64,000 nucleotides of DNA from Pseudomonadota bacterium (GTDB taxonomy: Bacteria > CALINM01): NCBI GenBank assembly GCA_026418415.1, contig JAOABK010000005.1, forward strand, positions 1,943-65,942, read 5' to 3'. The position numbers and the translations under genes were made by a program. The notes beneath the pieces were generated by a model. It saw nothing but the letters and a program-made list of their open reading frames with translations, did no database searches and was not told the DNA's origin. This document shows positions 26,652 through 64,000 of the stretch, in pieces (the stretch's first letter is position 1; each line of letters starts with the position of its first letter).

Positions 26652-26669
26652 ACTATTACCAGTTATAAA

Positions 26670-27209: not shown

Positions 27210-27219
27210 CAAGCCTCCA

Positions 27220-29457: not shown

Positions 29458-29608
29458 TTTTCCCTCCTAAGTTTTTTACTTTTCACCTCCCTTGTGATAA
29501 AATTAGTGTTGCGGGAGGTTTATACCTTCTTCGCAGGGGCAGAAAAGAACTCATACTTGGCAGGGTACTGGTCTTTTCTGCCCTTTTCAATAAAACTTAT
29601 ATTTCCTG
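29458..29608 (-). promoter_or_regulatory. Structured 151-nt leader between exbD and the TBDR gene. It has a 12-bp hairpin and a CCUCCC anti-SD that can pair with either of two GGGAGG/GGAGGG sites.
   Basis: Stem 29537..29548/29572..29583, GGGCAGAAAAGA/UCUUUUCUGCCC; anti-SD at 29513..29518; decoy GGGAGG at 29486..29491; true SD at 29462..29467. Confidence 0.4.
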
Positions 29609-44643: not shown

Positions 44644-45129
44644 TCATTTTTTCCAGAAAGTCTCAACCAGACCCACCTTCCATTCTCCATTCTCTTTAAT
44701 CATCTTCAAGTTAAAGGGATTCTCTGATTTTTTATGTCTAATAATGATCTCAGCACTGTCCCTTTTCTTAAGAACCTTTTCCCAAATGCAATCGTTCAAT
44801 ACAGTATGGGGATCAAAATCTTTTAGAAAACCATTCCAATAGGATTTGGCAATAAAACCATTTATACTAAAATCGGATCTTAATTGTTCAATCGAATAGG
44901 TCACACCCGTTGATTTTGATGCATTATATACATCATCTATCAATTTTTCCTGAGATTTTTTTGACAAATAAAACCACACCTTATCAAAATTTCTATCTTC
45001 AAGAGACTTAAAAAAAGTTTCTGCTGAATCAAGAATAATGTTTACTTCATTATTATTATCTATAGCAAAGCATAGTTGAAAAAACAAAGGAAAAGTTAAA
45101 ACTACAAAAAGCTTAATAATCCCTTTCAT
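44644..45129 (-). CDS. Secreted hypothetical protein
   Basis: Signal peptide; no recognisable motif; last gene of the export module. Confidence 0.45.
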   Translation of the reverse strand: MKGIIKLFVVLTFPLFFQLCFAIDNNNEVNIILDSAETFFKSLEDRNFDKVWFYLSKKSQEKLIDDVYNASKSTGVTYSIEQLRSDFSINGFIAKSYWNGFLKDFDPHTVLNDCIWEKVLKKRDSAEIIIRHKKSENPFNLKMIKENGEWKVGLVETFWKK

Positions 45130-45141
45130 TTACGATTAATT

Positions 45142-45678
45142 TTAATGGTGTCCAGTAGTAATCACGGGCGTGGTTCCACCACCTCCTCCACCGGCACCAG
45201 TAATAGCAATAGCACCACCCACAACTACTGCTGTTATTCCTGCACCCACTGCAATTGTTCCAGCAGTTATTCCACCAAGCACATTTGCTCCTGCGAGTGA
45301 ACCGCTTAGTGTTATAGAACCTGATGCAGCAGTTGCTTTAATTACATTTGCTGATGTAGCACCAATAGCAATACCAGAATTATTTAAAGCAGAAGCGATT
45401 GCTTCTGGAGAACCAATAATATAACCTCCTCCCAATTCCTGAGGGAGTGGGATTGCCATCTGTTCGCCAACTAATTTTGGTGGAACAGAAAGTTGAGTAT
45501 ACATTATCCCTGGATGATTAATTAAAAGTTGAAGTTGGTCTTGAGATAGTTTTACAACTGTTCCATCACCTAAAGTCATCACAGGATACTGAGCTTGTGC
45601 ATACGAAAATTTTGGAACTATAAAGGATGTTAAAAAGGTAATCATTAAAAAAACTGCTACAAAGCCCCTCTTACCCAT
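45142..45678 (-). CDS. Secreted Gly/Ala-rich low-complexity protein (YjbE/GfcA-like composition)
   Basis: Signal peptide; C-terminal half made of G/A/I/T runs ending GAGGGGGGTTPVITTGHH. Confidence 0.5.
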   Translation of the reverse strand: MGKRGFVAVFLMITFLTSFIVPKFSYAQAQYPVMTLGDGTVVKLSQDQLQLLINHPGIMYTQLSVPPKLVGEQMAIPLPQELGGGYIIGSPEAIASALNNSGIAIGATSANVIKATAASGSITLSGSLAGANVLGGITAGTIAVGAGITAVVVGGAIAITGAGGGGGGTTPVITTGHH

Positions 45679-47768: not shown

Positions 47769-47793
47769 ATATCAGAATTTTTTCCTGTCATCT

Positions 47794-50715
47794 TTAGAAA
47801 AGATTTATTACAACGCCAGCAGTTACTGCCATTTGCATTAGAATTTGCGTAATATCTTTAATCTCTCTTAACCAGGCTATCCTATCCAATTTTTCGGGAA
47901 CAACAATCGTATCGCCTGGCTCTATCTCTTTTTCTTCTTCACCAAAGGATGATAGTTCCCAACGTGACTTTATAGAGTTCCAATTAATCCAGCCCTTTGA
48001 AATTCTTTTAGCAGTTCCATCAACTTTTAAAATATAAACATTATCTTTGTCAGCAAACCTCGAAAATCCACCCGCTAAATTTATATAATCCATATAAACA
48101 TATTTTTCAGAGTAAATTACACTTGTTTGTGACATTACAGATCCTGTTACTGTAACAACACTACTTTTGGCTGGTATATATAAAGAATCTCCATCTTCAA
48201 GTTCAATATCATACTCACTATTCTTTAAAAGCCTTAAATGGGCAAGTTTGATACTCATTCTTCCCGTTGCTTTAAATTTTTTCAGAGAATCAATAAACCT
48301 TTTTTTACTCTCTAACTCGACCTTTTTGGCTGTTATCTCTTCTTGGGATACAGAAGTTGAGGCTGAAATAGCTCCCTCTGCTAAAAGCTCCCTCTCAAGC
48401 TTTGCTATCATTTCATCAAGAGATTTCTGTTGAAGTTCCTTTACGCTTTTTCTTGTAAATATTGCCCCTCTTAAATAAGCATTCTTTGTATAACCACCAG
48501 CTCTCTCTATTAAAGAAGAAATCTTCTCTCCCTTTTTAAGTATATATCTCCCAGGAAATAAAACCTCACCCGATATTGTTGCATACTCCTCTTTACGCCA
48601 ATCTGAAAGCCTTTTAATAAAAATTCTATCATAGGGTTTTAATAATATATTGTGTTCTCTAACATCCATAAGGGCTTTTGCAAGATTTATTTTTTTATGA
48701 TCTATCTTTACAATTTTATTATTTTCTATTACCTGTGAAGAAATCTCTGCTTCTTCAAGATAGGCAGACTCTAAAAGGTTGCCCGCTTTAAAAATAAGGT
48801 CTCTGACTGTCATACCTTCTGTATATTGATACTCTCCAGGCTTTAAAACTTCTCCACTAATGAAAACCACTTGTTTGTATTTTTCTTCATTAATAGAATG
48901 TATAATAATTCTATCTTCATCTTGTACCTTTATATTTTCATTTGGATCGCCAGATATTACCTTCTCAAGATTAAAGTATATTGTTTTATAATCTCTACTT
49001 GGAGTAACCCTTATAAGCTCGCCTTGCTTCATATAAGCCAATCTCGTAAGTCCACCTGCAAGAGCAATTACATCTCTGATAGTAGTATTTTCCATTATGG
49101 CAAACTTACCTGCTTTTCTTACTTCTCCTTGAATAGTAACAATGGGCTTATCTTTAAAGAACCATTTATTAAATACATAAATTATATCTTGGGGTTTTAG
49201 TTCAATATTATGTTCATCATTGCCACTTAAGATTGCTTTTTCTAAATTAAAGGGAACAAGTTCAGTTCTTAAATCTGGCAAAGCTAATCTTTTTATGAGG
49301 GCATAATCAAAATATGTTTCTGGTAATAGATCATTTGCATCTTTTATAATATCTTTCAGCCTCATTCCTATTTTATATTCATATTTACCCTGTTTTTTAA
49401 CATTTCCATATAGGTAGACTACATTAATATCCTTTTCTACAATATTGAAAATGTTTATTAAATCTCCATCTTCAAGTTTGAAGTTTTTTGACTTTTCAAG
49501 ATTTTTATCATCTATATCAATGATTATCTGTCTTTCATTCTTTATTATCCTCTCTACCTGAATTTGCTGAGTATAACCTGTTGGTAAAATTCCTCCAGCA
49601 AGTTCTATTAGATCATTTAAAGTATTTCCTTCTTTGAGCTCATAAATTGCTGGCCTTTTAACATTTCCAACTATTCCCACTATTGGACCAGCAACTGGTA
49701 CAAATATAACATCCCCTGCTTGTAAAATTTTATCCTGTGACTTGTCTCCTTTTAGAAGAAGGTCGTATAAATCAAATACCGCAACAACTTTATCCCTTCT
49801 TTTTAACTGAACATTCCGCATACTACCAATATTATTTGGTCCACCAGCTATAAGAAGAGCGTCTGTAATCGTAGCAAAAGAACCAATATTATATGCACCA
49901 GGCTTCCTTACGTCACCTAATACAAAGATGGGTATGCTTTTTAAATTACCCATGGTTATACTTATATTAGTACCAACTATCTCTTCCGCCCTTTTAGAAA
50001 TTAAACTTACCATCTGGTCATATGTTAATCCAGAGATCTGAATAGGACCTATATTTGGGATTGTAATGTTTCCATTTCTATCAATAACAAGGTTATACTG
50101 GGCATTTATTCTGCCCCACATTAGAATTCTTATTTCATCTCCTGGACCAACTACATATTTACCTGGAACAGGCATATCCCTTCTATCAGTTATAATTCTT
50201 GAGCCAGCAGTTTTAAAAAACTCATAACCAAAGGGCTTTAAATCTTTTTTGATTGTCTGGTATCCCTGTATATCCCTGAACCTTTTAAATAATATATCTT
50301 CCAAATCTTTTTCCATTTCTACTTTGTTTATTTCTTCCTTTTTCTTCTCCGTTTCTACTGTTTCCTTACTTTTTGATTCTAATTCTTCTTTACCCTTTAT
50401 TACTTCATCTAATGTCAACCCCTGAAATTCTGGCATATTTTTTATTGCTTCTACAGCTTCTGGTGTTAATCCCTTTTGTTGAATTATCTCCTGGGCAGAT
50501 TTTCTTTGTTCTGGACTTATATTCTTTAGTTGTTCTGGAGTAATATTTGTATTAGAAGGCTGGTTTAAATCTGGAGAAATATTTATTATCTGTAATTGAT
50601 TTGGATTTGATCCACTAAAATCTGCAGTTTGCTGTGCAAGGATATTAATACCTGAAATGAAAAAAATGAAAGAAGAGAGTAAATATATTTTCAATTTTTT
50701 AATGATATTACACAT
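47794..50715 (-). CDS. wza: Polysaccharide export protein, Wza/KpsD family, unusually large (973 aa) with multiple SLBB repeats
   Basis: Poly_export core PGDEIRILMWGRINAQYNLVIDRNGNITIPNIGPIQISGLT; several soluble-ligand-binding beta-grasp repeats; signal peptide. Confidence 0.8.
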   Translation of the reverse strand: MCNIIKKLKIYLLSSFIFFISGINILAQQTADFSGSNPNQLQIINISPDLNQPSNTNITPEQLKNISPEQRKSAQEIIQQKGLTPEAVEAIKNMPEFQGLTLDEVIKGKEELESKSKETVETEKKKEEINKVEMEKDLEDILFKRFRDIQGYQTIKKDLKPFGYEFFKTAGSRIITDRRDMPVPGKYVVGPGDEIRILMWGRINAQYNLVIDRNGNITIPNIGPIQISGLTYDQMVSLISKRAEEIVGTNISITMGNLKSIPIFVLGDVRKPGAYNIGSFATITDALLIAGGPNNIGSMRNVQLKRRDKVVAVFDLYDLLLKGDKSQDKILQAGDVIFVPVAGPIVGIVGNVKRPAIYELKEGNTLNDLIELAGGILPTGYTQQIQVERIIKNERQIIIDIDDKNLEKSKNFKLEDGDLINIFNIVEKDINVVYLYGNVKKQGKYEYKIGMRLKDIIKDANDLLPETYFDYALIKRLALPDLRTELVPFNLEKAILSGNDEHNIELKPQDIIYVFNKWFFKDKPIVTIQGEVRKAGKFAIMENTTIRDVIALAGGLTRLAYMKQGELIRVTPSRDYKTIYFNLEKVISGDPNENIKVQDEDRIIIHSINEEKYKQVVFISGEVLKPGEYQYTEGMTVRDLIFKAGNLLESAYLEEAEISSQVIENNKIVKIDHKKINLAKALMDVREHNILLKPYDRIFIKRLSDWRKEEYATISGEVLFPGRYILKKGEKISSLIERAGGYTKNAYLRGAIFTRKSVKELQQKSLDEMIAKLERELLAEGAISASTSVSQEEITAKKVELESKKRFIDSLKKFKATGRMSIKLAHLRLLKNSEYDIELEDGDSLYIPAKSSVVTVTGSVMSQTSVIYSEKYVYMDYINLAGGFSRFADKDNVYILKVDGTAKRISKGWINWNSIKSRWELSSFGEEEKEIEPGDTIVVPEKLDRIAWLREIKDITQILMQMAVTAGVVINLF

Positions 50716-51580
50716 CCAAAGCGCCCCCAGATTTTAAATTTTCAAAATATTCCTTTACAAAGGCATAAAAAATTCCAATGATTAAAGATGCCAATAAAGA
50801 GATCAAACCCATCAACGCTCTTTTAGGTTTCACCTTTTTATCAGGTGGTTTAGGTGGATCTATTACTTTAAAGGAAAAGTTTTCTTTCGCTTCCGCTAAC
50901 ATGCTTTGTTCTATTTGATTAGCTATGAGGTTGTAAATTTTAGCTCTTATAAAGGGATCCATTGTCTTATTTAGTTGTGATTCTAAATACATTTTGTTTG
51001 TTTTAGCAACTCTTTTCATCTCTTCACTCATATGCTCTTTTAATTCTTGAATTAAAAAATTTACTATATCAGCAGACATTTTAGGATCTTTGAACTGCAT
51101 GGACACCTGAACTAAGTTATCTTTTTGTTTATAATTAACTTTTAAGTTATCTTCAAAAAACCTCAATGCTTCCCAAACTTTTTCATCTTCAGTTTTATCT
51201 TTAAGATCATCTTTTTCAAAAAAAACATCAATTAGATTATACTTTTTAATTACTCTTTCCTGCAAAACTTTACTTTTTAAAAGTGCAACTACTTCTGATA
51301 ATTCAGGAGACTGGGGAGTAATAATCCCTAACTGAGAAGCAAAGGCGGTCATAAATGAAGGATTAGACTGTGTATTTGATGGGGCCAAAACCGCTGTAGC
51401 TTCATATATTGGAGTCATTAAAAAAGATATCCCAACTGTTAGAGATACAACAGCAAAGACAAATAATAGAATTTTTTTTCTATATTTTTTTAAAATGCTG
51501 TAAATTTCAATAAGATCTATCTCGTCTTCATTATATTTAATTCCTTTTATTTTTCCTATTTTTTTTGTTTCTTCATCCAT
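50708..51580 (-). CDS. wzz: Polysaccharide co-polymerase (Wzz/PCP-family chain-length determinant, no kinase domain)
   Basis: N-terminal Wzz motif IDLIEIYSILKKYRKKILLFVFAV (TM1); periplasmic coiled region; C-terminal TM2 ALMGLISLLASLIIGIF. Confidence 0.75.
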   Translation of the reverse strand: MDEETKKIGKIKGIKYNEDEIDLIEIYSILKKYRKKILLFVFAVVSLTVGISFLMTPIYEATAVLAPSNTQSNPSFMTAFASQLGIITPQSPELSEVVALLKSKVLQERVIKKYNLIDVFFEKDDLKDKTEDEKVWEALRFFEDNLKVNYKQKDNLVQVSMQFKDPKMSADIVNFLIQELKEHMSEEMKRVAKTNKMYLESQLNKTMDPFIRAKIYNLIANQIEQSMLAEAKENFSFKVIDPPKPPDKKVKPKRALMGLISLLASLIIGIFYAFVKEYFENLKSGGALDV

Positions 51581-51811: not shown

Positions 51812-52714
51812 TTACTTCCAGCTATATTTTACCATTGGAAGAGTAGCATCTCCCGCCCAATCCTGAGCAGAGCCATCATACATTTTAACATTTTTGTAAC
51901 CCAACATCTTGCTTAATACAAACCACCATCCAGAAGCAAGTCTTCCGGTATCACAATAAGTTATAATCTCTTTTTCTTTATCAGATCCCAAAACTCCCTT
52001 AGCCATAGCCTCTAATTCATCTAACATCTTAAAATTGCCATCTTTTGTGTATATCCAACCTGATGGTAAATTTACAGCACTCTCTATGTGTCCTGCTCTC
52101 GCTACAAAGTCCAGTTTAGCAACACCAAAGAAATATTCTGGCATTCTTGTATCTACTATAACACTTTTTCCAATAGCATTTTTAACTAAATTCTTATCAG
52201 CATAGATCTTCTGATTAATTTTGATTTTGAAATTTCCTGCCTTTGGTTTTTTTGTTTCAGTGGTAACAGTTTTCCCTTCCTTCGACCATTTAGTAAATCC
52301 ACCATCTAAAACTGATACTTTCTCAAAACCTGAATAATTTAAAGTCCAAGCAACTCTTGTCATGTTTACTAATTCTGTTAAGTTATCAGATAATCCTACT
52401 ATAACTACCAATGAGTTATCATTTATACCAGCATTTGTAATCAAATCCTGTAAATCATCATTTTCTGGAAGCTCATTTTTTCTTCCAGCTTTTTCAATTG
52501 CCCATGCACTATAAACTACATTAATAGAATTGGGAATATGATTAGCTTTATAATCCTCCGCTTTCCTAATATCAATAATTACAAGATTAGGATTATTAAG
52601 ATTCTTCTCTAACCAATCTGTTGATACCACAGGACTGTAATCGTTTGCCTGTGCAAAGGCAAAAAAAAGTACTACCAATAACCAGCTACCTAAAAAATTC
52701 TTCAATTTTCTCAT
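51812..52714 (-). CDS. Periplasmic tandem-rhodanese thiosulfate/polysulfide sulfurtransferase
   Basis: Signal peptide; two rhodanese domains; catalytic loop CDTGRLAS in the second domain; 300 aa. Confidence 0.8.
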   Translation of the reverse strand: MRKLKNFLGSWLLVVLFFAFAQANDYSPVVSTDWLEKNLNNPNLVIIDIRKAEDYKANHIPNSINVVYSAWAIEKAGRKNELPENDDLQDLITNAGINDNSLVVIVGLSDNLTELVNMTRVAWTLNYSGFEKVSVLDGGFTKWSKEGKTVTTETKKPKAGNFKIKINQKIYADKNLVKNAIGKSVIVDTRMPEYFFGVAKLDFVARAGHIESAVNLPSGWIYTKDGNFKMLDELEAMAKGVLGSDKEKEIITYCDTGRLASGWWFVLSKMLGYKNVKMYDGSAQDWAGDATLPMVKYSWK

Positions 52715-52729: not shown

Positions 52730-53953
52730 TTATTGTCTAAAATCAAATATTAAACCCTCATTAGCACGAGAGCCATTTGGTATTAAGTCCTCTTTCTTAA
52801 GAAAGTTAATCTTTTCAAGATGGCAGGTATCACAGTTTCTTGTTCTATCTGTTCTCTTTTTAATATTATGTGGTGCCGTATCCCAATAATTTGGTAATTT
52901 ATCAAAATTTTCCATTTTTATACCTACTGAAGCAAAGGTATCTCTTACAGTTGGAACAACTCTCAAAGTTGTTAATTGATTTTTAGCTCGTGGATTTCTT
53001 CCAAGTATAAATCCTGGTTTTGCAGAAGAGCCCTTACCTAAATGACAGTTGTAACAGTTTCTATATTCTCCTCCACTATGACAGGCATAACAGCTAACCT
53101 TATCCTCAGAGTGTATTGAATGTGCCTCTTTAGCTTTATCTGTCTTTTCTAAGCCCGACTTATGACACTTTGTACAAGTATTTTTATATTCTAATAATTT
53201 TCTCGCTGTTTGAGGCTTACCATCCCCATGGATCTCTTTTATCGAATGACAATCCATGCACATCATACCTTTTTGATAATGAATATCTGCTGAACCGCCA
53301 TAATCACCAGTAAATTCAGGATAAACTCTACCCCCATGGCAAAGAGCACAGGTCTTTGTTTCATCTTTTCTTATGAATTTATGACCTTTAATTAATCCTA
53401 AATTTACGCCTCCTATTGTTGGTGATTTTACATGACAATCTCCACAGCTGGCATGACAACTTCTACAGGATTTCTCAAAAACCTTTTCATTAAAAATCTT
53501 TTTTTCTGCTTCTGACAATCTTTCGGAGAATATATTTTTTTGACCATAAGGATAGTAATGAAGAGATAGTTTATAACTACTACCTATTTCTTTGTGGCAT
53601 TTGGCACATAAATCTATATTTTCAGAAGGTCTCTTATCTAAGTTTTTATGGGCTTCTTCTTTTTTTTCTTTCTTGTCATCACCTTTGTGACATTTTACAC
53701 ACCCTAACTTTAAATGAACATCACTATTAATTAAATTTTTGTCAACTAAATAAGCTTTATAATACTCTTCCGCCTTAACTGACGGAGGTGCTCCCGCTCA
53801 GCCCTCTCCTTCTTCACCCCCTAAATGAGGAACCTTAACTAATTTTTTTAAAGTTGCTTCATCGGTATGACAAAAAACACATGTGTTCTTTTCAGCACTT
53901 GCATAGCTAATAAAAACAAAGAAAAAGACAAATAGGATTTTTATAAATTTCAT
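52730..53953 (-). CDS. Periplasmic multihaem cytochrome c with 11 CxxCH motifs. It has a single in-frame TGA at 53798..53800, which is a candidate Sec codon or a nonsense mutation. The ORF track reports only the 3' part (52730..53518), and that part begins at an internal TTG.
   Basis: By manual translation, the ATG at 53953 has a GGGAGG RBS and a TTGACA-16-TATAAA promoter. It encodes MKFIKILFVFFFVFISYASA, then CVFCH, ...GEEGEG-TGA-AGAPPS..., CVKCH and CAKCH. The same frame continues without further stops into the annotated ORF, which carries CRSCH, CGDCH, CALCH, CMDCH, CTKCH, CYACH, CYNCH and CDTCH. Confidence 0.6.
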
Positions 53954-53982
53954 ATCTTACCTCCCTATTCTTTAATGAATAT

Positions 53983-54010
53983 TTTATAATTAAAAAAAAC
54001 ACATTGTCAA
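53983..54010 (-). promoter_or_regulatory. Sigma70-type promoter of the cytochrome-rhodanese operon (TTGACA-16-TATAAA)
   Basis: -35 at 54010..54005; -10 at 53988..53983; RBS GGGAGG at 53965..53961. Confidence 0.5.
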
Positions 54011-54226
54011 ATAACTTAATTTATGTTTAAATTAGCCATATTTTTTGTTATTTGACTTAACAATTCATTAGAGCCTTAATATTCCAACTGCAATATAAAA
54101 TATGTTTCTTAAAAAACTATCTATAACATTATTGCATTTATTAAAAGATTATCATCAAAAATTTGAAAGTCAATTTTGAAAATATCTTCTTTATAAAAAA
54201 AATATAGCTCTATATAATTATTAACG

Positions 54227-55123
54227 ATGCAAAATTTCGCTAAGCTTAAAAATAAACTGCTAAGTTTTATAGATAATTTTTGTTGTACCCTTTTAAAAAG
54301 GGATGTCAAATCATCTCAACTTTTTATAATTGGTTTGCCACGTTCTGGTGCAACTTTGGTATATCAGTATATAGTTCACAGGCTACATGTGGCTTACTTT
54401 ACTAATGGTGCAGGCAACAAGCCATATATACCTTGTCTTACAATCTTCTTACAAAAGACTTTTAGAAGACCCTATGTTTCTGATTTCAAAAGTAATTTTG
54501 GAAGAGTTGCTGGCCCCATGGCTCCTCGAGAAGCAGGCAGGATATGGGGAAAGTTCTTCTTACCTGATAAATATGAGACCTATGAAAATATCATAGAAAA
54601 AAAAAGAAAAGAGCTCTACCGTTTGGTAACCTGCATACAAAGCATTTTTGGAGATGTGCCCTTTGTTAATAAAAATGTCAGAAATTCTCTTCACATAGAT
54701 GCCTTAGCAAAAATTTTTCCTAAATCTAATTTTCTTGTTATAGAAAGGAATCTTGAAGATGTTGCTCTCTCTATACTAAGAGCAAGAAAACTAACCCATG
54801 GAGATTATAATTTATGGTTTTCTGTAAAACCAAGGAACTATGAAGAGATAAAAAATCTCTCAATACCAGAACAAATCTTTCATCAAATAAAAGATATCAG
54901 AGAATGTATTAATGAAAGTATCAAAAAATTACCAAAAGATAGAGTAAAGGTGATAAATTATGAAGACTTCTGTAAAGAACCAGAATTGGTAATCAATTTA
55001 TTTTCTAACATATTTATAAATGTTAAAGAGAAGAACCCACCTGTATCACATTTTCTCTCAAAAAAACAACACCCTAACACTACATTAGAGAAAGAGCTTA
55101 TAAAAACTATAACAAAATTATGA
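54227..55123 (+). CDS. Sulfotransferase-family protein (PAPS-dependent)
   Basis: 5'-PSB loop IIGLPRSGATL; 298 aa. Confidence 0.7.
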   Translation: MQNFAKLKNKLLSFIDNFCCTLLKRDVKSSQLFIIGLPRSGATLVYQYIVHRLHVAYFTNGAGNKPYIPCLTIFLQKTFRRPYVSDFKSNFGRVAGPMAPREAGRIWGKFFLPDKYETYENIIEKKRKELYRLVTCIQSIFGDVPFVNKNVRNSLHIDALAKIFPKSNFLVIERNLEDVALSILRARKLTHGDYNLWFSVKPRNYEEIKNLSIPEQIFHQIKDIRECINESIKKLPKDRVKVINYEDFCKEPELVINLFSNIFINVKEKNPPVSHFLSKKQHPNTTLEKELIKTITKL

Positions 55124-55843
55124 AACAATCTTTTTTTTGATAATTTGGTAAAATCTTCTTAAAACATAAAATAAATAGTGCATATCACCGAAATATTTTT
55201 TAATTAGAACCCCCCTATCAATTTTAAAAGCCTCATCTTCTCTTTTAGAACTTAAGCCATCATCATTATAGATTGATATAACTCTATTTATATATTTTAT
55301 TTTGATTTGCTTATTTCCGAAACATCTCATATTAAATTCATAATCAGCCCAAAGAGGATATTTTAAGTTGAACAAACCTAATCTATCAAAAATTGATCTT
55401 CTATAAAAAATAGCCTGATGACATATGTTTCTAAAATGCATCTTAATTTTATAAAATTTACCATCGTAGATTTTTTTAGTTTGCTTAAAAATTACATTAC
55501 CATATACTAAATCAAAATTGCTGTTTTCTACTGAATTGAAAACATCTTCGAGCACTCTATTGTCATAAAATAGATCATCACTACCCATAAAATATATCCA
55601 CTCACTATCAGATTGTAAAATGCCCTTATTTAAAGCATCGTAGATTCCTGAGTCAGGCTCACTGATAAAGTATTTAATTTTTTTTGAATTTCTCTTGATA
55701 ATATCACATGTCGCATCTTTTGAACATCCATCAATTACAATAATCTCATAGTCTTTCCAGGTTTGGTTATATATACTATCTAAAGTATCTTGAATTGTAC
55801 TCTCTGAATTATAAGTAGCAATTATAATATTAAGTTTACTCAT
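55118..55843 (-). CDS. Family-2 glycosyltransferase
   Basis: IIIATYNSESTIQDTLDSIYNQTWKDYEIIVIDGCSKD GT-A N-terminus with DxD. Confidence 0.85.
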   Translation of the reverse strand: MSKLNIIIATYNSESTIQDTLDSIYNQTWKDYEIIVIDGCSKDATCDIIKRNSKKIKYFISEPDSGIYDALNKGILQSDSEWIYFMGSDDLFYDNRVLEDVFNSVENSNFDLVYGNVIFKQTKKIYDGKFYKIKMHFRNICHQAIFYRRSIFDRLGLFNLKYPLWADYEFNMRCFGNKQIKIKYINRVISIYNDDGLSSKREDEAFKIDRGVLIKKYFGDMHYLFYVLRRFYQIIKKKIVS

Positions 55844-57162
55844 CTTTTAAAAAATGGCACGTAATATGTTACAATGCCAAATTTCCTTTTTACATAGAAT
55901 AGGGAAACTAAATTCCAAAAAACCATACTTATTGCAAATCCTAAAGAAGCACCATCTATTCCTAAAAGAGGCACTAAAATAAGACAAAGTATAAAATTAA
56001 TTAACGTTGCTAATAGGTATATATTTCTAAAAACTATCTGATTGCCAGTCATTGTCAACAAATATCCTACGCTACCACAAAAGGCATTTACAAATTGCCC
56101 TAAAGATATAATAATCAAAGATCTATATCCTTCAACAAACTCTTTACCAAAGAGCCCCATAAAAAACTTTGGTATTATTATAAATAGAGCAAGAAGAGGT
56201 GCTGAACTCCAGAAGTTTAATTTTGCTGATAACAGAGCGGTCTTATTTAGGTCTTCCATTTTTCTATTCCAATAAAATTCTGCAATTTTTGGTGCTACTA
56301 TCGAATTTATTGAAACAAGAAAAAAACTTGTAATTGTAGCAATTTTATAGGCGATATTGAAAACTCCAACACTTTTAGTATCAGTAAAATATGCTAAAGT
56401 AAAAACAGGGGTATAGCTTGATACTAAGCTCGCAACTGAAACATAAAACATTGGCAAAGAAACCAGGAATAATTGTTTTGTGTTAATGTTATTTTTATCA
56501 TTTAAATTTAGCTTAGATTTATTTACTTTACTCATAATAAAGTATGTTGAAATTAGGAATGTAATAAAAAGACCTATAAAATTTGTTAAAATTGGCAAAA
56601 TTATATTAAATTCAATAAATAGCAGAATAATAAAAAATAAAGCTACATTAACGAAATTAATTAAAAACATTCTAAAAATTTCACTTTCTTTTATAAACAG
56701 CATGCCCCTTATAGCCTCTACATTTAAACTGTTTAAGGCTAAAAATACTACTCCTAAAGCAACGAGATTAAAAATCATTGGATTATAAAAATCTCTAAAT
56801 AATATTTCGGATAAAAAGGTCTTAGAAAAAAAAATAATAGAAGAAACAACAAATCCTGAAAACAAGATCCAGGAAAACATTTTTCTGTAAATATAAAAAA
56901 AAGCTAATCTATCCTTACAATGTTCCCCTGCAAATCTTAGAATTGATTGTTCAAATCCAAGAGTAGCTAAGACAGAAGCTAAAGTCATCAAAGAATTGGC
57001 TACATTAATAATACCAACTGTTTTAGCACCAAAATTTCTCGAAATATAAAAAATAAAAAAATAGCTTAAAAGAATAGAAAATGTTTTTATAATAAAAGTT
57101 GTTATAGAATTTAATAAAACCTCTTTCCCAATAGATTCTTTTACAAATATTTTTTCTAACAT
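55840..57162 (-). CDS. wzx: Wzx-type polysaccharide flippase (MOP superfamily)
   Basis: 440 aa; about 12-14 TM helices; polysaccharide-biosynthesis-protein architecture. Confidence 0.75.
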   Translation of the reverse strand: MLEKIFVKESIGKEVLLNSITTFIIKTFSILLSYFFIFYISRNFGAKTVGIINVANSLMTLASVLATLGFEQSILRFAGEHCKDRLAFFYIYRKMFSWILFSGFVVSSIIFFSKTFLSEILFRDFYNPMIFNLVALGVVFLALNSLNVEAIRGMLFIKESEIFRMFLINFVNVALFFIILLFIEFNIILPILTNFIGLFITFLISTYFIMSKVNKSKLNLNDKNNINTKQLFLVSLPMFYVSVASLVSSYTPVFTLAYFTDTKSVGVFNIAYKIATITSFFLVSINSIVAPKIAEFYWNRKMEDLNKTALLSAKLNFWSSAPLLALFIIIPKFFMGLFGKEFVEGYRSLIIISLGQFVNAFCGSVGYLLTMTGNQIVFRNIYLLATLINFILCLILVPLLGIDGASLGFAISMVFWNLVSLFYVKRKFGIVTYYVPFFKR

Positions 57163-57966
57163 TTAGATATAACCAAAAGCATTCATAGTATTTCCAAATC
57201 TATCTTTAAGTTTTCTAATATCATTTTCTGTAAAATAATTTAACCATTCATCAATCCTCCCAGAACGAATGAAGGGAATATCTTTTTTTGTATTTTTTAA
57301 CACCTTAGTCTCATCAGACAGTCTTTTTTCATTCTCTTTCATGTTTTCAAATTTTGACTTTTCAATCGCTTTTAGAAATTTATCGTTCGAGACACTTAAC
57401 CTCAAAAATCTAATCACCTTTCTAACTTCCTCTTCAATGTTATTTGATAAATCCTCGTATTTTATTAAAAGGAAATTTTCTAAATCTTGATTTTTCATAA
57501 AGACCCAGCTTTTAACATTTTCTTCCCAAGTACCATAATTATCCAAAGTCCCATCTAAAAATCTTTCAAGAAAATCTTGAAAACTAATTTTTTCGTCTAA
57601 AACATTAAACTTTTTTAAATGAAAGTAATAAGAAACTGCTACACTTCTTGGATCTCTAACAATATAAATAACTTTTTTATATTTAGGATGATAGTATTCA
57701 TGACTTTTAAGTATTCTTGGTCTTGGATATTTTTTTAAAATTTCATTAGGGACTACATATATATCTGGGATTAACTCCTCCATGTTTTTAAAATTAAAGT
57801 CATCATAAATAAGATTACCTATTATAAATCTCATCCATGTATTGCCACTTTTAGGATAAGAAACAATAAATATATCGTCATCAAAATAATCAATATCCCT
57901 ACCCATTTTTTTCCTATTAATATAATCTACAAGAAACATGTTTATTCTCTTTTTAAACCAGTTCAT
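57163..57966 (-). CDS. Sulfotransferase (Sulfotransfer_1 domain)
   Basis: 5'-PSB motif SYPKSGNTW; 3'-PB motif IYIVRDPRSVAVSYY. Confidence 0.8.
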   Translation of the reverse strand: MNWFKKRINMFLVDYINRKKMGRDIDYFDDDIFIVSYPKSGNTWMRFIIGNLIYDDFNFKNMEELIPDIYVVPNEILKKYPRPRILKSHEYYHPKYKKVIYIVRDPRSVAVSYYFHLKKFNVLDEKISFQDFLERFLDGTLDNYGTWEENVKSWVFMKNQDLENFLLIKYEDLSNNIEEEVRKVIRFLRLSVSNDKFLKAIEKSKFENMKENEKRLSDETKVLKNTKKDIPFIRSGRIDEWLNYFTENDIRKLKDRFGNTMNAFGYI

Positions 57967-58892
57967 AAATCACTTGCCCCTTTGTTTTTTAAAATTATTA
58001 ACAGGTGATCTTTTACATTAAACAAATCTGGCACGGTCTTCTTTTCTAATGTTTCTTTATTCCCATTTCTTAAATAATAGTAAAATCTTTGACTTATAAG
58101 AAAAATTAAATTTTGCAAAAAATTTCTTAAAATAACCTTAACTCTTAAATCTATATTATGAGAAAATTTTTTTATATATAAAATTTCAAAATCTAATTTA
58201 CTACATACAAAATTAATCCATTTCAGGTTAATAAAGCTAATATGTTCTATGATTGAACAATAATAGTATCGGTTTTTGTATATTCTTTTCCATAAAAAAT
58301 ATTCTGAATCTCCTGTTGATAAAAGTATAATCCCCTTTGGCTTAAGAATTTCCTTTAAACTTAATAAGAGTGAAAGAGGGTCACTCACATGTTCAATTAC
58401 ATCAAAGAGAGTGATTACATCAAATCTATTATCTATTCCTCTAATATTCAAAAAATTATTTTCTATAATTTTAATTCCCCTTTTCTCTGCCAACTCAGCA
58501 GCATAGGGATTTAACTCAATGCCATATCTATTGTAATACCCATTTAAAGAATCCAAAAACTTCCCATCCCAACAACCCAAATCAAGAATTGATGCATCTT
58601 TTCTTATATTTTCGAATATAAAGTTCTTAGCAATAATCCAGTCAGCCCTATTTTCATAAACATTATCCCAATGAGTGGGATTTAAATTTTTATATAAATC
58701 TTCCAAAATGCTATAGTCCAATTCTGACCACACAAAACATAGATTACAAGAAAGACATCTAAAAAGAAACCTATCTTTACGAGACTCACAATCTAACTTT
58801 ATATCACCAAGATAATAACTCGTGGGTATTAAGCCTAAATTTTTCAGGTTAATACTTTTACAACAGGGACATTGATATTTGACTATTGCCAT
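57963..58892 (-). CDS. Class I SAM-dependent methyltransferase with N-terminal zinc ribbon (sugar C-/O-methyltransferase-like)
   Basis: CPCC...CLSC zinc ribbon; motif I ILDLGCWDGKF. Confidence 0.7.
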   Translation of the reverse strand: MAIVKYQCPCCKSINLKNLGLIPTSYYLGDIKLDCESRKDRFLFRCLSCNLCFVWSELDYSILEDLYKNLNPTHWDNVYENRADWIIAKNFIFENIRKDASILDLGCWDGKFLDSLNGYYNRYGIELNPYAAELAEKRGIKIIENNFLNIRGIDNRFDVITLFDVIEHVSDPLSLLLSLKEILKPKGIILLSTGDSEYFLWKRIYKNRYYYCSIIEHISFINLKWINFVCSKLDFEILYIKKFSHNIDLRVKVILRNFLQNLIFLISQRFYYYLRNGNKETLEKKTVPDLFNVKDHLLIILKNKGASDL

Positions 58893-58897
58893 AAATT

Positions 58898-60001
58898 TTA
58901 TAGTATATAATTTTCATAATAAGTGCTTTTTATACCATCCCTCAATCCAATTCTATATTGCCAGCCCTTTTTTAATAATCTACTTACATCAAGTAACTTT
59001 CTTGGTGCTCCATCTGGCTTAGAAATATCCCACTTTATTTCTCCTCTAAATCCCACAATCTCCCTAATAATAGACGCTAATTCTTTAATCTTTAAATCTT
59101 CTCCAGTACCTATATTTATAAATTCTCCAACATCTTCAAAATCATATTTTTCCATAATAAATACACAAGCATCCGCAAGATCATCGACATGCAAAAATTC
59201 CCTATATGGCTCACCACTACCCCACAAAATAACAATTACTGAACCATCCTCCTTTATAATACCGTTATCTTTTAAAACATTTAAAATCTTTTGCTCTCCT
59301 TCATTACCATTCACACCATCTATTGGATTTTTGTTAAGATCCTTTCTTATGCTATCCCAATCATCATTTTCAAGACATTTAGCAAGATGAAATTTTCTTA
59401 TCAAAGCAGGTAGAACATGAGAATTTTTAAGATCATAATTATCGTTAGGCCCATAAAGATTTGTTGGCATCACCGATACAAAGTTTGTATTATACTGTTC
59501 ATTGTAGTATCTGCAAAGTTTAATAGCGCAAATTTTAGCAATTGCATAGGGCTCATTGGTAGGTTCAAGAGAACCAGTCAGTAAATATTCTTCTTTCATA
59601 GGCTGTGGACAATTTTTTGGATAGATACATGATGAACCAAGATTTAGCAATTTATTTACACCATATTTATAGGAAGCATGAATTATATTTGTAGAAATCA
59701 TTATATTATCGTAAATAAATTCCCCTTTATATGTATTATTAGCAAGAATACCTCCTACTTTTGCTGCACTTAAAAAAACATATTTTGGTTTCTCCAGTTT
59801 AAAAAATTCTTCTACATCTTTTTGGATTCTTAGGTCTAAATTAACAAAATTAACACTCCCACTCTCTTTTGGAGGCCTCTTATTAAAGTTTGATACGATA
59901 TTTGTATAGCCCTTTTTCTTTAGATCTCGAATTATTGCACTTCCTACCATACCAGTACCACCGGCCACAAAAATTTTATCATCTATCATCATAATCTTCA
60001 C
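58898..60001 (-). CDS. fcl: GDP-L-fucose synthase (GDP-4-keto-6-deoxy-D-mannose 3,5-epimerase/4-reductase), with an internal insertion of about 45 aa
   Basis: IFVAGGTGMVGSAI Rossmann motif; SDR catalytic Y..K (YAIAK); 367 aa versus about 320 typical. Confidence 0.85.
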   Translation of the reverse strand: MKIMMIDDKIFVAGGTGMVGSAIIRDLKKKGYTNIVSNFNKRPPKESGSVNFVNLDLRIQKDVEEFFKLEKPKYVFLSAAKVGGILANNTYKGEFIYDNIMISTNIIHASYKYGVNKLLNLGSSCIYPKNCPQPMKEEYLLTGSLEPTNEPYAIAKICAIKLCRYYNEQYNTNFVSVMPTNLYGPNDNYDLKNSHVLPALIRKFHLAKCLENDDWDSIRKDLNKNPIDGVNGNEGEQKILNVLKDNGIIKEDGSVIVILWGSGEPYREFLHVDDLADACVFIMEKYDFEDVGEFINIGTGEDLKIKELASIIREIVGFRGEIKWDISKPDGAPRKLLDVSRLLKKGWQYRIGLRDGIKSTYYENYIL

Positions 60002-61192
60002 CTATATGTCACATCTATTTCTTATTTCAAACCCAGCACTATGAAGTGTAAAATCCTTATAAGCTCTCACCAAATCTCCTTCTACCATATCCTTTATCAA
60101 ATCCTTAATTGTTAGTTTAGGCTCCCAACCGAGCTTTGTTTTTGCTTTACTATAATCTCCAATTAGCAAGTCAACTTCTGTAGGTCTAAAATATTTAGGA
60201 TCCACATTTATCAAATCTTTCCCCAACAGGGATTTAACATTCTTTTCAATTTTCGAATAGTCAATGCATAATTTTTGGAGTTTATTAAAAAGTATGTCTT
60301 CATCAATCTTTTTTATTATGCCCTTTTCTTCTAAGCCCTTACCATCAAATTCAACACTAATCCCCAACTCGCCAAATACTAATCTAATAAACTCCCTAAC
60401 TTCTGTTGTTTTACCAGTGGCCAAAATGTAATCATCGGGCTTTTCTTGTTGCAACATCAGCCACATACCAACAACATAATCCTTCGCATGCCCCCAATCT
60501 CTTTTTGCATCTAAATTGCCAATATATATTTTTTTATCCAACCCTAAAAGAATTCTCGAAGCACCACGAGTTATCTTCCTTGTAACAAATGTTTCTCCTC
60601 TTATTGGAGATTCATGGTTAAAAAGTATACCATTGCAAGCAAACACATTATATGCTTCTCTATAATTTACAGTAATCCAATAGGCGTATAATTTAGCAAC
60701 ACCATAGGGACTTCTCGGATAAAATGGAGTTGTTTCTCTCTGTGGTATTTCTAAAGCCTTGCCGAATAATTCAGATGTAGATGCCTGATAAATTTTAACC
60801 CTATCAGTTAGCCCAAGCAACCTAACCGCTTCTAATATCCTTAAAGTTCCTAAACCATCGCAGTTTGCTGTATATTCTGGTTGTTCAAAACTAACAGCAA
60901 CATGGGATTGAGCTCCTAAGTTATAAATCTCATCGGGCTGAATCTTCTGAATTAGTCTTGTAATATTTAGGCTATCGGTTAAATCTCCATAATGTAGAAA
61001 AAAGCCCGTCTTTTCTTCGTGAGGATCTTTATATAAGTGATCTATTCTTTCTGTATTAAATAGGGATGTTCTTCTTTTTATGCCATGAACCTCATATCCC
61101 TTAGATAGCAAAAGTTCTGCAAGATAAGCACCATCTTGACCTGTAACGCCAGTTATAAGAGCTTTTTTCATAGAATCCCCATATAAATTCAA
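60002..61192 (-). CDS. gmd: GDP-mannose 4,6-dehydratase (start probably at 61171, MKKALITG)
   Basis: [31 protein letters not shown]; [10 protein letters not shown] catalytic YxxxK. Confidence 0.9.
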
Positions 61193-62061
61193 AATAAAAT
61201 ATTGTATTTATCACTATTAATATGCCTTTTTATATATCTTTCAATTGCATTTTTCCAGTTAGGAATTTCAATATCAAGAATCTTAGATATTTTCTTATTG
61301 CTCATCGCTGAAAAATATGGCCTTTGTGCTGGAACATTGAAAAATGAAGTAGAAACAGGGAGTATGAGATTCTCCTTCCCTAAACATTCTAAAAAGAATC
61401 TTGCCACTTCATATCTTGATGCATAACCGCTATTTGTTAAATGAAATATTCCTCTTAAGCCTTTATCTATAGCTCTCCTTGTTACTTTTACGATGTCTTC
61501 AGTATATGTTGGTATAGAAACCTGATCACTTACTATTTTAATGACCCTATTTCTCTGAGACCACTCCCTTAATTTATGCAGAAAGTTTTGCTTTCCTTCG
61601 CCAAAAACCCAGCTTACTCTAAAAATAAGATAATTATCCGTTTCTTCCAATATACCTTTCTCTCCCCCGAGCTTACTTTTCCCATAAACAGAAATAGGGT
61701 TAGGTTCATCTTCTTCTGTGTAAAAATCCTCTTTTCTGCCATCAAATACATAATCTGTACTAAAATGAACAATCAAGGAACCTATCTTTTTTGCTAAATA
61801 AGCTAAGTTCTTAGGACCTTGAGAATTTATCTTAAATGCTAATTCACCTTCTGTCTCCGCACCATCAACATTATTATAGGCAGCACAATTTATTATTACA
61901 TTTGGTTTAAAGTTTGACACCAATTCTTCCAATGACTGAAAATCAGATATATCCAGTTTCTCCTTTGATAAAGCTAACACTTCTATTGATGAATTATTTT
62001 CGAGATTTTTTCTAAACTCTGTAGCTAACTGACCATTTGCACCAGTTATTAGATACCTCAT
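61189..62061 (-). CDS. rfbD: dTDP-4-dehydrorhamnose reductase
   Basis: [13 protein letters not shown] Rossmann motif; SDR YGKSK. Confidence 0.85.
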
Positions 62062-62624
62062 TACTCATCTCCATAAATGAAGTTGTTTTTAGCATCCCTC
62101 AAAAAAGGTAATTTAGCGTCTTTATCAGATAATATAGGGTCTTTTATTGGCCAGTATATGTTTATTTCGGGATCATCCCATCTGATTCCTGCATCTAATT
62201 CTGCACAATATTCCTCTGTACACTTATATTGAACCTCAGCCTCATCACTTAAAACACAAAAACCATGTGCAAAGCCAACGGGAATGTAAAGCATGTAGAA
62301 ATTATCTTCAGATAACTCAATCCCTACCCATTTACCATAAGTGGGAGAACCTTTTCTTATATCTACACCCACATCCCATATCTTTCCTTTAGTACATCTA
62401 ATTAGCTTACCTTGGGCTTTTGGATTTCTTTGAAAATGTAGCCCCCTTAATACACCTCTAACTGATTTAGAATGATTATCCTGTAAAAATCTCTCTTTAA
62501 TACCAAACTCTAAAAATTCTGAATATTTATAAGTTTCAAGAAAGTAGCCCCTTTGATCTAAAAAAACTTTAGGCTTTATAAGAATAATTTCAGGTATTGC
62601 TAATCTTTCAAAAGTAAAAGGCAT
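62061..62624 (-). CDS. rfbC: dTDP-4-dehydrorhamnose 3,5-epimerase
   Basis: RGLHFQ cupin motif; 187 aa. Confidence 0.9.
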   Translation of the reverse strand: MPFTFERLAIPEIILIKPKVFLDQRGYFLETYKYSEFLEFGIKERFLQDNHSKSVRGVLRGLHFQRNPKAQGKLIRCTKGKIWDVGVDIRKGSPTYGKWVGIELSEDNFYMLYIPVGFAHGFCVLSDEAEVQYKCTEEYCAELDAGIRWDDPEINIYWPIKDPILSDKDAKLPFLRDAKNNFIYGDE

Positions 62625-62630
62625 TTAATG

Positions 62631-63515
62631 TTAAACCCCAGGATTTTTTATTATTCTTAAAAGATATTGTCCATACTCGCTTTTATTAAGTTCATTTGCT
62701 AACTTTAACAGTTGATTCTCTTTAATATACCCAAGCCTGTATGCTATCTCTTCGATGCAAGCAATTTTTAATCCCTGTCTTTTTTCTATAGTGGCAATAA
62801 ATTCTCCAGCTTCAAGAAGACTTTCATGGGTACCTGTATCAAGCCAAGCATAACCTCTTCCCATCAATTCTACTCTCAAATTCCCTTTCTTTAAATACTC
62901 TTTATTAACGTCAGTTATCTCAAGCTCTCCCCTTTCAGAGGGCTGTAAATTTTTTGCTATATCAACTACATTATTGTCATAAAAATAAAGACCTGTTATT
63001 GCATAATTAGACTTGGGATTCTTTGGTTTCTCTTCTACTGATATAACATTCCCTTTTTCATCAAACTCCACAATACCATATCTTTCAGGATCCTTTACAT
63101 AATAACCAAATACCGTTGCACCACCTTTTGTTTGCACATCTTTTACAGATTTTCTCAAAAGTTCAGTTAAACCATGGCCATAAAATATATTATCTCCAAG
63201 AATCAAGCACACATCATCCTTGCCAATAAACCTCTCTCCTATTAAAAATGCGTCAGCGATACCTCTTGGTTCTGGTTGCTCGAGATATGAAAATCTTAAG
63301 CCATAATCAGAACCATCCCTTAACAAATCCCTAAACCTTGGTAAATCATAGGGGGTTGAAATAATGAGTATATCACGTATGCCAGCAAGCATCAAAACTG
63401 ATAAAGGATAGTAAATCATTGGCTTATCGTAAACAGGTAGCAGTTGCTTACATAAAGCCTTGGTGATCGGATAAAGCCTCGTTCCACTTCCACCAGCAAG
63501 AATAATGCCTTTCAT
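62631..63515 (-). CDS. rfbA: Glucose-1-phosphate thymidylyltransferase
   Basis: [18 protein letters not shown]; 294 aa. Confidence 0.95.
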
Positions 63516-63605: not shown

Positions 63606-63633
63606 AATAAAAAAGGTCTGCACAAGGCAGACC
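63606..63633 (-). terminator. Rho-independent terminator downstream of rplQ (stem GGTCTGC/GCAGACC, then U6)
   Basis: Hairpin 63615..63633; on the minus strand it is followed by UUUUUUAUUAU (plus-strand A-run 63609..63614). Confidence 0.6.
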
Positions 63634-63658
63634 TTTCTATTTTTAAATTATCTTATTT

Positions 63659-64000
63659 TTAAGATTCTTTTTCTTTCAGAGCAATATCAAAATCAACCCA
63701 CTCAAGAATTGCCATAGGTGCTGCATCTCCAAGTCTTCTTTGAAGCTTTAAAACCCTTGTATATCCTCCCTTTCGATTGTTGAATTTAGGTGCTATTTCA
63801 GAAAAGAGTCTTTTTAAAGCCTCATCATCTCTTAGAAATGCAAAGGCCATGCGTCTTGCATGTAAATCTCCCTTTTTACCAAGAGTAACCATTTTGTCTG
63901 CATATCTTTTTACAACCTTAGCCTTTGTTTCGGTCGTTTCTATCCTTCCATGCTTTATTAATGATACTACCATATTCTTAATCATTGCAATACGATGAGG
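63659..64000 (-). CDS. rplQ: 50S ribosomal protein L17 (5' end lies beyond the window end)
   Basis: The frame is open through the window end and reads ...HRIAMIKNMVVSLIKHGRIETTETKAKVVKRYADKM.., as in L17. The track start at 63985 is an internal Met. Confidence 0.85.
   Translation of the reverse strand, partial: PHRIAMIKNMVVSLIKHGRIETTETKAKVVKRYADKMVTLGKKGDLHARRMAFAFLRDDEALKRLFSEIAPKFNNRKGGYTRVLKLQRRLGDAAPMAILEWVDFDIALKEKES

Follow-up and report, generated by a model that had tools for sequence, protein, structure and literature searches.

Two predicted PAPS-dependent sulfotransferases in a Wzx-containing gene block proposed to serve the supply and decoration of a deoxyhexose surface glycan in a Pseudomonadota bacterium

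The stretch of DNA analysed here, referred to as the window, spans 64 kb of contig JAOABK010000005.1 from a Pseudomonadota bacterium (assembly GCA_026418415.1). Our subject is a block of genes at positions 54227-63515 in which two sulfotransferases, ST1 and ST2, are found together with enzymes of deoxyhexose precursor synthesis and a Wzx flippase. A map of the open reading frames (ORFs), combined with Pfam and NCBIfam profile searches, resolves the block into nine tightly packed minus-strand genes and the convergent plus-strand gene for ST1 (Table 1), reproducing every gene call of an initial annotation made from the sequence alone. The minus-strand genes are read in the order rmlA, rmlC, rmlD, gmd, fcl, a methyltransferase gene (MT), ST2, wzx and GT2. 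Because neighbouring genes between 63515 and 55118 are separated by gaps or overlaps of no more than 6 nt, they are taken to form one operon. ST2 overlaps MT by 4 nt and abuts wzx without a gap, and 6 nt are shared between ST1 and the end of GT2. As the annotation had stated, the locus starts right after the rplQ terminator, with its hairpin and T-run, and a promoter-like site lies 5′ of rmlA at 63569-63541.

Table 1. Coordinates in the window of the block's genes, the bordering ribosomal features and the nearby export and redox genes. Bit scores are given against the family cut-off; other values are E-values.
Feature	Coordinates	Strand	Evidence or remark
ST1, PAPS-dependent sulfotransferase, Sulfotransfer_3 family	54227-55123	+	PF13469, 1.3e-13
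GT2 glycosyltransferase, 241 aa	55118-55843	-	PF00535, 1e-27
wzx, lipid-linked oligosaccharide flippase	55840-57162	-	Polysacc_synt (PF01943), 2e-16; MatE
ST2, PAPS-dependent sulfotransferase, Sulfotransfer_1 family	57163-57966	-	PF00685, 8.8e-46
MT, SAM-dependent methyltransferase, putative sugar O-methyltransferase	57963-58892	-	Methyltransf_23, 1.8e-20
fcl, probable GDP-L-fucose synthase, insertion of ~50 aa	58898-60001	-	NCBIfam GDPFucSynFcl, 430 bits vs 500
gmd	60002-61192	-	TIGR01472, 577 bits vs 415
rmlD, dTDP-4-dehydrorhamnose reductase	61189-62061	-	TIGR01214, 298 bits vs 224
rmlC, dTDP-4-dehydrorhamnose 3,5-epimerase	62061-62624	-	TIGR01221, 256 bits vs 156
rmlA, glucose-1-phosphate thymidylyltransferase, first gene of the operon	62631-63515	-	TIGR01207, 497 bits vs 361
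rplQ terminator hairpin, between ribosomal operon and rmlA	63612-63636	-	10-bp stem with 5 GC pairs, then T-run
rplQ	63659-63985	-	
11-haem periplasmic cytochrome c	52730-53953	-	11 CxxCH motifs; in-frame TGA at 53798-53800 (codon 52)
Periplasmic two-domain rhodanese with signal peptide	51812-52714	-	
Wzz/PCP-like chain-length protein, no kinase domain	50708-51580	-	Wzz and GNVR domains
Wza/OPX, 973 aa	47794-50715	-	Poly_export and seven SLBB domains
YjbH/GfcD-family protein	45711-47768	-	PF06082, 7e-140

Two of the enzyme calls need qualification. The initial annotation described a complete GDP-fucose branch, and for gmd this stands above the family cut-off, its start more probably being the ATG at 61171, which gives 389 aa as in a related contig (L001, below). 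The match of the fcl product is broken into two stretches by an insertion of ~50 residues and for this reason stays below the cut-off, although GDP-L-fucose synthase is by far its best NCBIfam match. The protein carries SxxC...YxxxK...SHV residues, as read from the sequence, and has 49% identity to the fcl-like gene of an Algoriphagus locus. The methyltransferase, predicted to use S-adenosylmethionine (SAM), had been called a zinc-ribbon enzyme. Its methyltransferase domain is clear and N-terminal cysteine clusters (CPCC...CLSCNLC) can be read by eye, but no Pfam zinc-ribbon model matched it. Methyltransferases of the same class also stand beside ST1 homologues in L004 and L032. GT2 is the sole glycosyltransferase of the block.

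Both sulfotransferases lack a signal peptide and classify, on their conserved motifs, as enzymes dependent on 3′-phosphoadenosine 5′-phosphosulfate (PAPS). ST2 has the 5′-phosphosulfate loop, the 3′-phosphate motif and the catalytic histidine that mark this superfamily. In a sequence search of the Protein Data Bank (PDB) it aligns over its full length with cytosolic SULT structures (E ~1e-28), with its YPKSGNTW loop (residues 37-44), H89 and R104...S112 falling on the same SULT elements. Invariant or nearly so in 30 homologues are S36-Y37-P38-(K39)-S40-G41-T43-W44, K87-S88-H89-E90, R104 and S112. ST1 has no sequence relative in the PDB. Its family alignment nevertheless shows an invariant GLPRSGTT loop (residues 36-43) and R174...S182, and G36-P38-R39-G41-T43, E102, N148-K149-N150, R174 and S182 are unchanged in 43 homologues. 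An AlphaFold model built on this alignment (predicted local distance difference test score, pLDDT, of 94) has the sulfotransferase fold, and every one of its 25 best PDB matches is a sulfotransferase, among them the CurM sulfotransferase domain, mycobacterial Stf1 and Stf9, TPST2 and NDST. ST1 thus combines a 5′-phosphosulfate-binding (PSB) loop of the RxG variant, the serine of the 3′-phosphate-binding (PB) helix and the α/β fold of the superfamily.

What these enzymes sulfate is a separate question. The best PDB matches of ST2 are SULT1, SULT2 and SULT7 (aryl, steroid and bile-salt enzymes), followed by Teg12, Teg14 and StaL from glycopeptide-antibiotic synthesis, and no heparan-type carbohydrate sulfotransferase appears among solved structures at E 1e-3 or better. 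The initial annotation had held that better matches to aryl or small-molecule sulfotransferases would speak against a carbohydrate role. ST2 does have such matches, yet the conserved gene context makes the comparison uninformative: similarity to PDB entries mirrors what was crystallised, and the context of the gene was therefore consulted for its substrate. A search with ST2 returned 5,979 proteins at E<=1e-3, the best 120 of which are all at least 40% identical to it. We sampled the context of three distant homologues on long contigs, from Algoriphagus vanfongensis (L002), Psychroserpens sp. (L033) and a 4 Mb genome (L034). All three (44-51% identity) directly adjoin wzx inside full Wzx/Wzy loci. 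Besides glycosyltransferases and a priming transferase, these loci include rml or gmd/fcl genes and have a cysC-cysD-cysN-cysQ set of their own. The Psychroserpens locus holds a second, Sulfotransfer_3-type enzyme as well. In L034, a 961-aa outer membrane polysaccharide export protein (OPX) resembling that of the window and a polysaccharide co-polymerase (PCP) are encoded directly upstream of the ST2-homologue locus. Relatives of ST2 on plasmids of rhizobia and other alphaproteobacteria are only 23-31% identical (28% in S. meliloti). Homologues of ST1 (42-48% identity) occur in modules composed of a DegT aminotransferase, a FemAB-like acyltransferase, the sulfotransferase and wzx (L031, L032 and L006-L009). 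This conservation of sulfotransferase homologues in polysaccharide loci is the main reason for accepting a glycan substrate. The earlier remark that sulfotransferases in such loci are uncommon was overstated, given the size of the ST2 search result and the published clusters (PMC11766843, PMC11641403, PMC8205485).

The lineage itself can be placed only broadly. The window's Ffh has ~28 relatives at 75-92% identity, after which there is a gap to ~60%, where the few named matches are metagenome-assembled genomes labelled 'Deltaproteobacteria' or 'Proteobacteria'. Four related contigs hold the locus. L001 is colinear with the window (rplQ-rmlACD-gmd-fcl-MT-ST2-wzx-GT2-ST1). In L005, only ST1-wzx-rmlDCA lies between window-like flanks, with a HAD-family gene, two small genes, YjbH, Wza, Wzz, the rhodanese and the cytochrome on one side and rplQ, rpoA and rpsD on the other. 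The same ST1-wzx-rmlDCA module sits in other neighbourhoods in L003, where GT2 and Bac_transf genes lie beyond the cytochrome/rhodanese pair, two genes from ST1, and in L004, where it is accompanied by a different second sulfotransferase, a methyltransferase, a PMT_2 protein and three nearby glycosyltransferases, including a WsaF-like one. GT2, ST2, MT, fcl and gmd are lacking at the locus in L003, L004 and L005. Counted over five related contigs, ST1 is in each case a neighbour of wzx.

Nucleotide comparison draws these differences sharply. Similarity by blastn to L003, L004 and L005 extends over ST1 (54179-55121), a stretch of wzx (55847-56409) and, from 61191 on, rmlD and what follows. No similarity is seen over GT2 (55122-55846) or over 56399-61192, a segment with ST2, MT, fcl, gmd and the 5′ part of wzx, so that the edges fall cleanly at 55122/55846 and 56399/61192. 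The right-hand boundary is the 3′ end of rmlD, where similarity stops at 61191-61229. The wzx gene is a mosaic: its 3′ third has 70-76% nucleotide identity to the three contigs and its 5′ two-thirds (56410-57162) no nucleotide similarity, which places a recombination breakpoint inside wzx. At the protein level, Wzx is 55% identical to its L005 counterpart, compared with 80-89% for the Rml proteins, and rmlA is 89% identical to its orthologues in L001, L004 and L005. As judged from these alignments, rmlACD, the 3′ part of wzx and ST1 are a conserved frame across an uncultured clade, and gmd-fcl-MT-ST2-5′wzx together with GT2 are an exchangeable, serotype-like cassette. The initial annotation had seen an insertion hotspot after rplQ. 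What varies is the internal cassette, and rmlACD, wzx and ST1 stay in place in the related contigs as a fixed frame. Plausibly, and purely by inference, the frame would yield a sulfated, rhamnose-containing unit through ST1, to which the cassette would plausibly add fucose, methylation and a second sulfation through GT2, MT and ST2.

A nitroreductase gene is found beside ST1 in L001 (9899-10486, the contig ending within the gene) and in L003 (9229-9852, between ST1 and the cytochrome gene). At this position L005 has only a 99-aa ORF (9598-9897) and the window a 270-bp AT-rich spacer (53954-54226), so the nitroreductase gene appears, from this comparison, to have been lost in the window.

The base composition of the block had been put forward for comparison with the rest of the window, and the comparison reveals a real dip: GC is 0.26-0.27 in GT2, wzx, ST2 and MT versus 0.33 +/- 0.03 in fourteen housekeeping genes. 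At third codon positions, however, the two sets cannot be told apart by GC (0.19-0.23 in the dip genes versus 0.20-0.28 in the housekeeping genes). The dip therefore stems from amino-acid composition, recent horizontal transfer is ruled out as its cause, and there is no compositional case for a foreign origin.

Equally informative is what the window lacks, essentially the whole of its 64 kb having been annotated with Pfam and searched by targeted tblastn. The absence of rmlB, reported by the initial annotation, extends to the entire window, in which an RmlB query matches only gmd (25% identity). The dTDP-L-rhamnose set rmlA-rmlB-rmlC-rmlD is complete in the window but for this gene, and since rmlB is not beside rmlACD in L001, L003, L004 or L005 either, it is evidently encoded elsewhere in this lineage. 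The window likewise contains no manB or manC, no Wzy polymerase, no Bac_transf or other priming enzyme, no GT4 glycosyltransferase and no sulfate permease. A Bac_transf gene does stand beside the module in L003. Algoriphagus CysC, CysD, CysN and CysQ queries gave no tblastn match in the window, and none of the scanned ORFs has an APS_kinase or PAPS_reduct domain. The co-occurrence of cysC, cysD and cysN, with or without cysQ, with sulfotransferases has been proposed as the hallmark of sulfated-polysaccharide clusters (PMC11641403), and this combination is not seen here. To say that the locus builds a polysaccharide, as had been claimed, is thus too strong: with one glycosyltransferase and none of the priming, polymerisation, rmlB, manB/C or PAPS-synthesis functions, the locus alone cannot make a polymer.

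Genes for export lie nearby. A PCP and OPX pair is present 2.6 kb from the block, followed by a YjbH/GfcD-family gene, so the earlier statement that the locus adjoins Wzz/Wza/YjbH holds as to proximity (45711-51580) but not as to contact, the rhodanese and cytochrome genes intervening. A partnership of Wzz and Wza with the sulfotransferase block for export is possible by inference. Two small secreted proteins are encoded 3′ of yjbH (45142-45678 and 44644-45129, both on the minus strand). Neither has a Pfam or NCBIfam match, and both are kept in L005. The first has a long low-complexity tail rich in Gly, Ala and Thr, in the manner of E. coli YjbE.

We consider it reasonably likely that, within a Wzx-dependent pathway for a surface glycan (the repeat unit of an O-antigen, capsule or exopolysaccharide), the block takes care of precursor supply and decoration. 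A sulfated, possibly methylated, deoxyhexose-containing glycan is the best reading of its predicted product, because the sulfotransferase families occur in polysaccharide loci, the PAPS motifs are kept and the glycan genes (wzx, GT2, MT and the precursor genes) are co-operonic. That much of the original proposal is retained. In the pathway we envisage, a single promoter 3′ of the rplQ terminator would drive nine co-translated genes. RmlA, RmlC and RmlD, with RmlB encoded elsewhere, would provide dTDP-L-rhamnose, and Gmd and Fcl would convert GDP-mannose made elsewhere to GDP-L-fucose. GT2 would add one sugar to an undecaprenyl-diphosphate-linked oligosaccharide, and MT and the two cytoplasmic sulfotransferases would decorate the lipid-linked unit on the cytoplasmic face, sulfation presumably occurring at this stage. 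Decoration is placed in the cytoplasm because it is the only compartment with both PAPS and SAM, PAPS being found nowhere else. The decorated unit would then be flipped by Wzx. Priming, most glycosyl transfers, polymerisation and PAPS supply would be encoded beyond the window, and export would perhaps proceed via the nearby PCP, OPX and YjbH genes.

Several observations weigh against this reading. PAPS-synthesis genes, rmlB, manB/C, a priming transferase and Wzy are all missing from the 64 kb, and, the priming transferase apart, none of them is in the related contigs that were fetched. Two unrelated genes, for the rhodanese and the multihaem cytochrome c, part the export genes from the block. 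The nearest solved relatives of ST2 are small-molecule sulfotransferases. Among the fold neighbours of ST1, which reach TM-scores of only 0.4-0.54, CurM modifies a polyketide intermediate and TPST a tyrosine of proteins, and Stf1 and Stf9 are further, mycobacterial enzymes. Acceptor specificity, finally, is not readable from sequence, and any particular acceptor sugar named on this basis would be more apt to be wrong than right.

The same enzymes could instead serve a lipopolysaccharide (LPS) O-antigen or the decoration of a lipooligosaccharide, ligated by WaaL, in which case the adjacency of Wzz, Wza and YjbH would be inherited synteny only. The organisation into frame and cassette resembles that of classical O-antigen loci in that the rml genes are conserved, wzx diverges and GC is low in the centre. 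The intervening rhodanese and cytochrome genes fit this alternative, as does the position of the ST1-wzx-rml module in L003 and L004, away from any Wza gene, and sulfated LPS, possibly with sulfated O-antigen, has been discussed (PMC11641403). We nonetheless hold it to be unlikely, if well worth keeping in view, as in L034 the locus of the ST2 homologue is immediately preceded by genes for a PCP and for a large OPX much like the window's; neither waaL nor wzy is visible to decide the matter. A further alternative is that the product is no polymer but a short lipid-linked oligosaccharide destined for the glycosylation of proteins or an S-layer. This would explain the single glycosyltransferase and the missing Wzy gene. 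The WsaF-like rhamnosyltransferase and PMT_2/ArnT-like transferase beside the module in L004 point the same way, WsaF-type rhamnosyltransferases being known from S-layer glycan synthesis. This is improbable in our judgement, since PCP, OPX and YjbH genes are close by, the window shows no oligosaccharyltransferase of the PglB, PglL or AglB type, and the lacking functions may be encoded elsewhere.

Least probable of all is that the acceptor of one sulfotransferase, or of both, is something other than a glycan, for instance a lipid, a peptide or a small metabolite of phenolic or steroid-like type, the enzymes being mere passengers of the operon. The solved structures closest to ST2, and the likeness of ST1 to the CurM domain and to tyrosylprotein sulfotransferase, are what would be expected under this explanation. 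Set against them are the 4-nt overlap of ST2 with MT and its abutment on wzx, the homologues of both enzymes in several phyla that are embedded in polysaccharide loci beside wzx, and the lack of nearby genes for the biosynthesis of a small-molecule acceptor. One could also go much further than the supply-and-decoration pathway preferred here and see an uncultured, low-GC, deltaproteobacteria-like lineage that makes a doubly sulfated, O-methylated, fucoidan-like fucose/rhamnose glycan with two sulfotransferase subfamilies not characterised so far and PAPS from general metabolism instead of a dedicated cluster, the cytochrome-rhodanese wedge marking a coupling of sulfur respiration to glycan sulfation. 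To that full picture we would give little credence.

The cytochrome gene next to the block is of interest in its own right, and is more unusual than the glycan block itself. Its in-frame TGA lies within the motif GEGEG-U-AGAPPSVK, and a stem-loop with a 6-bp stem follows 15-32 nt downstream. The orthologues in L005 (8298-9527, minus strand) and L003 (7866-9101, minus strand) keep the TGA, the flanking protein sequence and the 3′ stem-loop. The family counts 502 cluster representatives, and many of their gene calls start just past the TGA position. A cysteine aligned with an in-frame TGA is a classic selenoprotein signature, and such a cysteine is present in 4 of 15 full-length homologues. The UGA probably encodes selenocysteine (Sec), judging from these alignments, and the cytochrome would then be a selenoprotein. 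A sequence search of the PDB brought up no relative. Weak NCBIfam matches link it to ExtN and ExtM, and the rhodanese to ExtH, of the Geobacter selenite/tellurite operon. The published multihaem selenoenzyme MccSep has five haems and carries Sec in a C-terminal Ig-like domain (PMC13510729). Membership of that family is ruled out by the different haem count and Sec position, and the protein looks, from its sequence, like a distinct Sec-cytochrome family.

The rhodanese and the predicted Sec-cytochrome stay paired amid polysaccharide genes in the window, L005 and L003, their neighbours being Wzz and Wza in the first two and GT2 and Bac_transf in the third. A partnership of ST1 with this pair was considered and rejected as the principal explanation of ST1: the pair is missing from the polysaccharide modules in which homologues of 42-48% identity occur, and L004 keeps ST1 without it. 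Elsewhere, the start of the window is occupied by a minus-strand gene (1-2444, running off its edge) for a large protein, secreted and longer than 800 aa, in which RCC1-like repeats (WGxNxxGQLGxG) followed by repeated beta-rich modules can be recognised by eye. At 26670-27305 (minus strand), an FmdE-domain protein with a DksA/TraR-type zinc finger is encoded inside an uptake cluster of TonB-dependent receptor, ExbBD and FecCD-type ABC genes (23741-31271). Rfam and tRNA scans of the window found one tRNA-Met only.

For fucoidan-, rhamnan-sulfate- and heparin-like materials, enzymes that sulfate rhamnose or fucose at specific positions are wanted, and few bacterial ones have been characterised. 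The locus and its relatives offer two compact, soluble candidates. Versions with and without the fucose/methyl/ST2 cassette, together with the L004 version carrying a different second sulfotransferase, provide natural comparison sets. They are also evidence that the pairing of wzx with a sulfotransferase is a widespread module among environmental bacteria. The picture of how sulfated glycans are made is left unchanged by the locus.

The synechan (xss) cluster, carried by Synechocystis sp. PCC 6803 on plasmid pSYSM, is of the Wzx/Wzy type, has two sulfotransferases and makes a sulfated product that contains rhamnose (PMC8205485). Like the window, it is Wzx-dependent and has two sulfotransferases of different subfamilies. 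Sulfation has been proposed to take place on the lipid-linked unit, as we propose here, and its OPX gene lies away from the cluster, just as the window's OPX gene is outside the block. However, xss is essentially complete: it encodes eight glycosyltransferases and also has Wzy, a PCP-2a and a priming transferase. In the window there is a single glycosyltransferase, and Wzy and a priming enzyme are missing. XssA and XssE both belong to the Sulfotransfer_3 family, and ST1 and ST2 are related to them only at the superfamily level. Orthology was rejected, as tblastn found no match in pSYSM at 1e-3 and hhalign matches were partial, with probabilities of 3-97%.

Capsules with rhamnose 2-sulfate are made by Cobetia marina KMM 1449 and Vibrio sp. 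KMM 8419, whose clusters, like the window, have a sulfotransferase gene next to the rml genes (PMC11766843, PMC11641403). Their chemically determined product bears sulfated L-rhamnose, and a sulfated deoxyhexose is predicted here too. Those capsules depend on an ABC transporter of the kps type, in contrast to the Wzx-type system of the window, and their clusters carry rmlB, their own cysC/cysD/cysN/cysQ and a sulfate permease, while the window lacks rmlB and PAPS-synthesis genes and adds a fucose branch and a methyltransferase. The Bacteroidota loci of Algoriphagus vanfongensis and Psychroserpens sp. share the ST2 family (44-51% identity) next to wzx. The Psychroserpens locus also has a Sulfotransfer_3 enzyme, rml genes and a GT2, and that of Algoriphagus has gmd and fcl, as in the window. 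Unlike the window, both are complete (Wzy, GT4s, Bac_transf and cysC/D/N/Q). We found no experimental characterisation of these loci.

The remaining parallels are functional or organisational. Mesorhizobium loti KpsS is reported to have fucosyl sulfotransferase activity (PMC11625862). As summarised there, KpsS, rhizobial NodH and LpsS-type enzymes are PAPS-dependent and act on surface glycans or lipo-oligosaccharides, which likens them in function to what is predicted for ST1 and ST2. The anaerobe Pontiella sulfatireligans F21 has a putative sulfated exopolymer cluster, sulfated exopolymers occurring in strict anaerobes (PMC7356697). In this cluster a PF13469 sulfotransferase lies beside a methyltransferase, a Wzx-like TuaB, a DegT/VioA transaminase, gmd and glycosyltransferases, an arrangement that the DegT-FemAB-sulfotransferase-wzx modules of the ST1 homologues resemble. 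Unlike what is predicted for the window, the Pontiella polymer is glycosaminoglycan-like and mostly N-sulfated, and its cluster has many hexosaminyltransferases. Given the sulfated rhamnose capsules, the reported activity of KpsS (PMC11625862) and the exopolymers of strict anaerobes (PMC7356697), the chemistry called unusual in the initial annotation is less so than it suggested. In essence, the predicted chemistry and the logic of the locus are already established in other bacteria. What is new is the host lineage, the sulfotransferase subfamilies, the combined inventory of rhamnose, fucose, methylation and double sulfation, the lack of linked PAPS genes in the window and the clear cassette structure.

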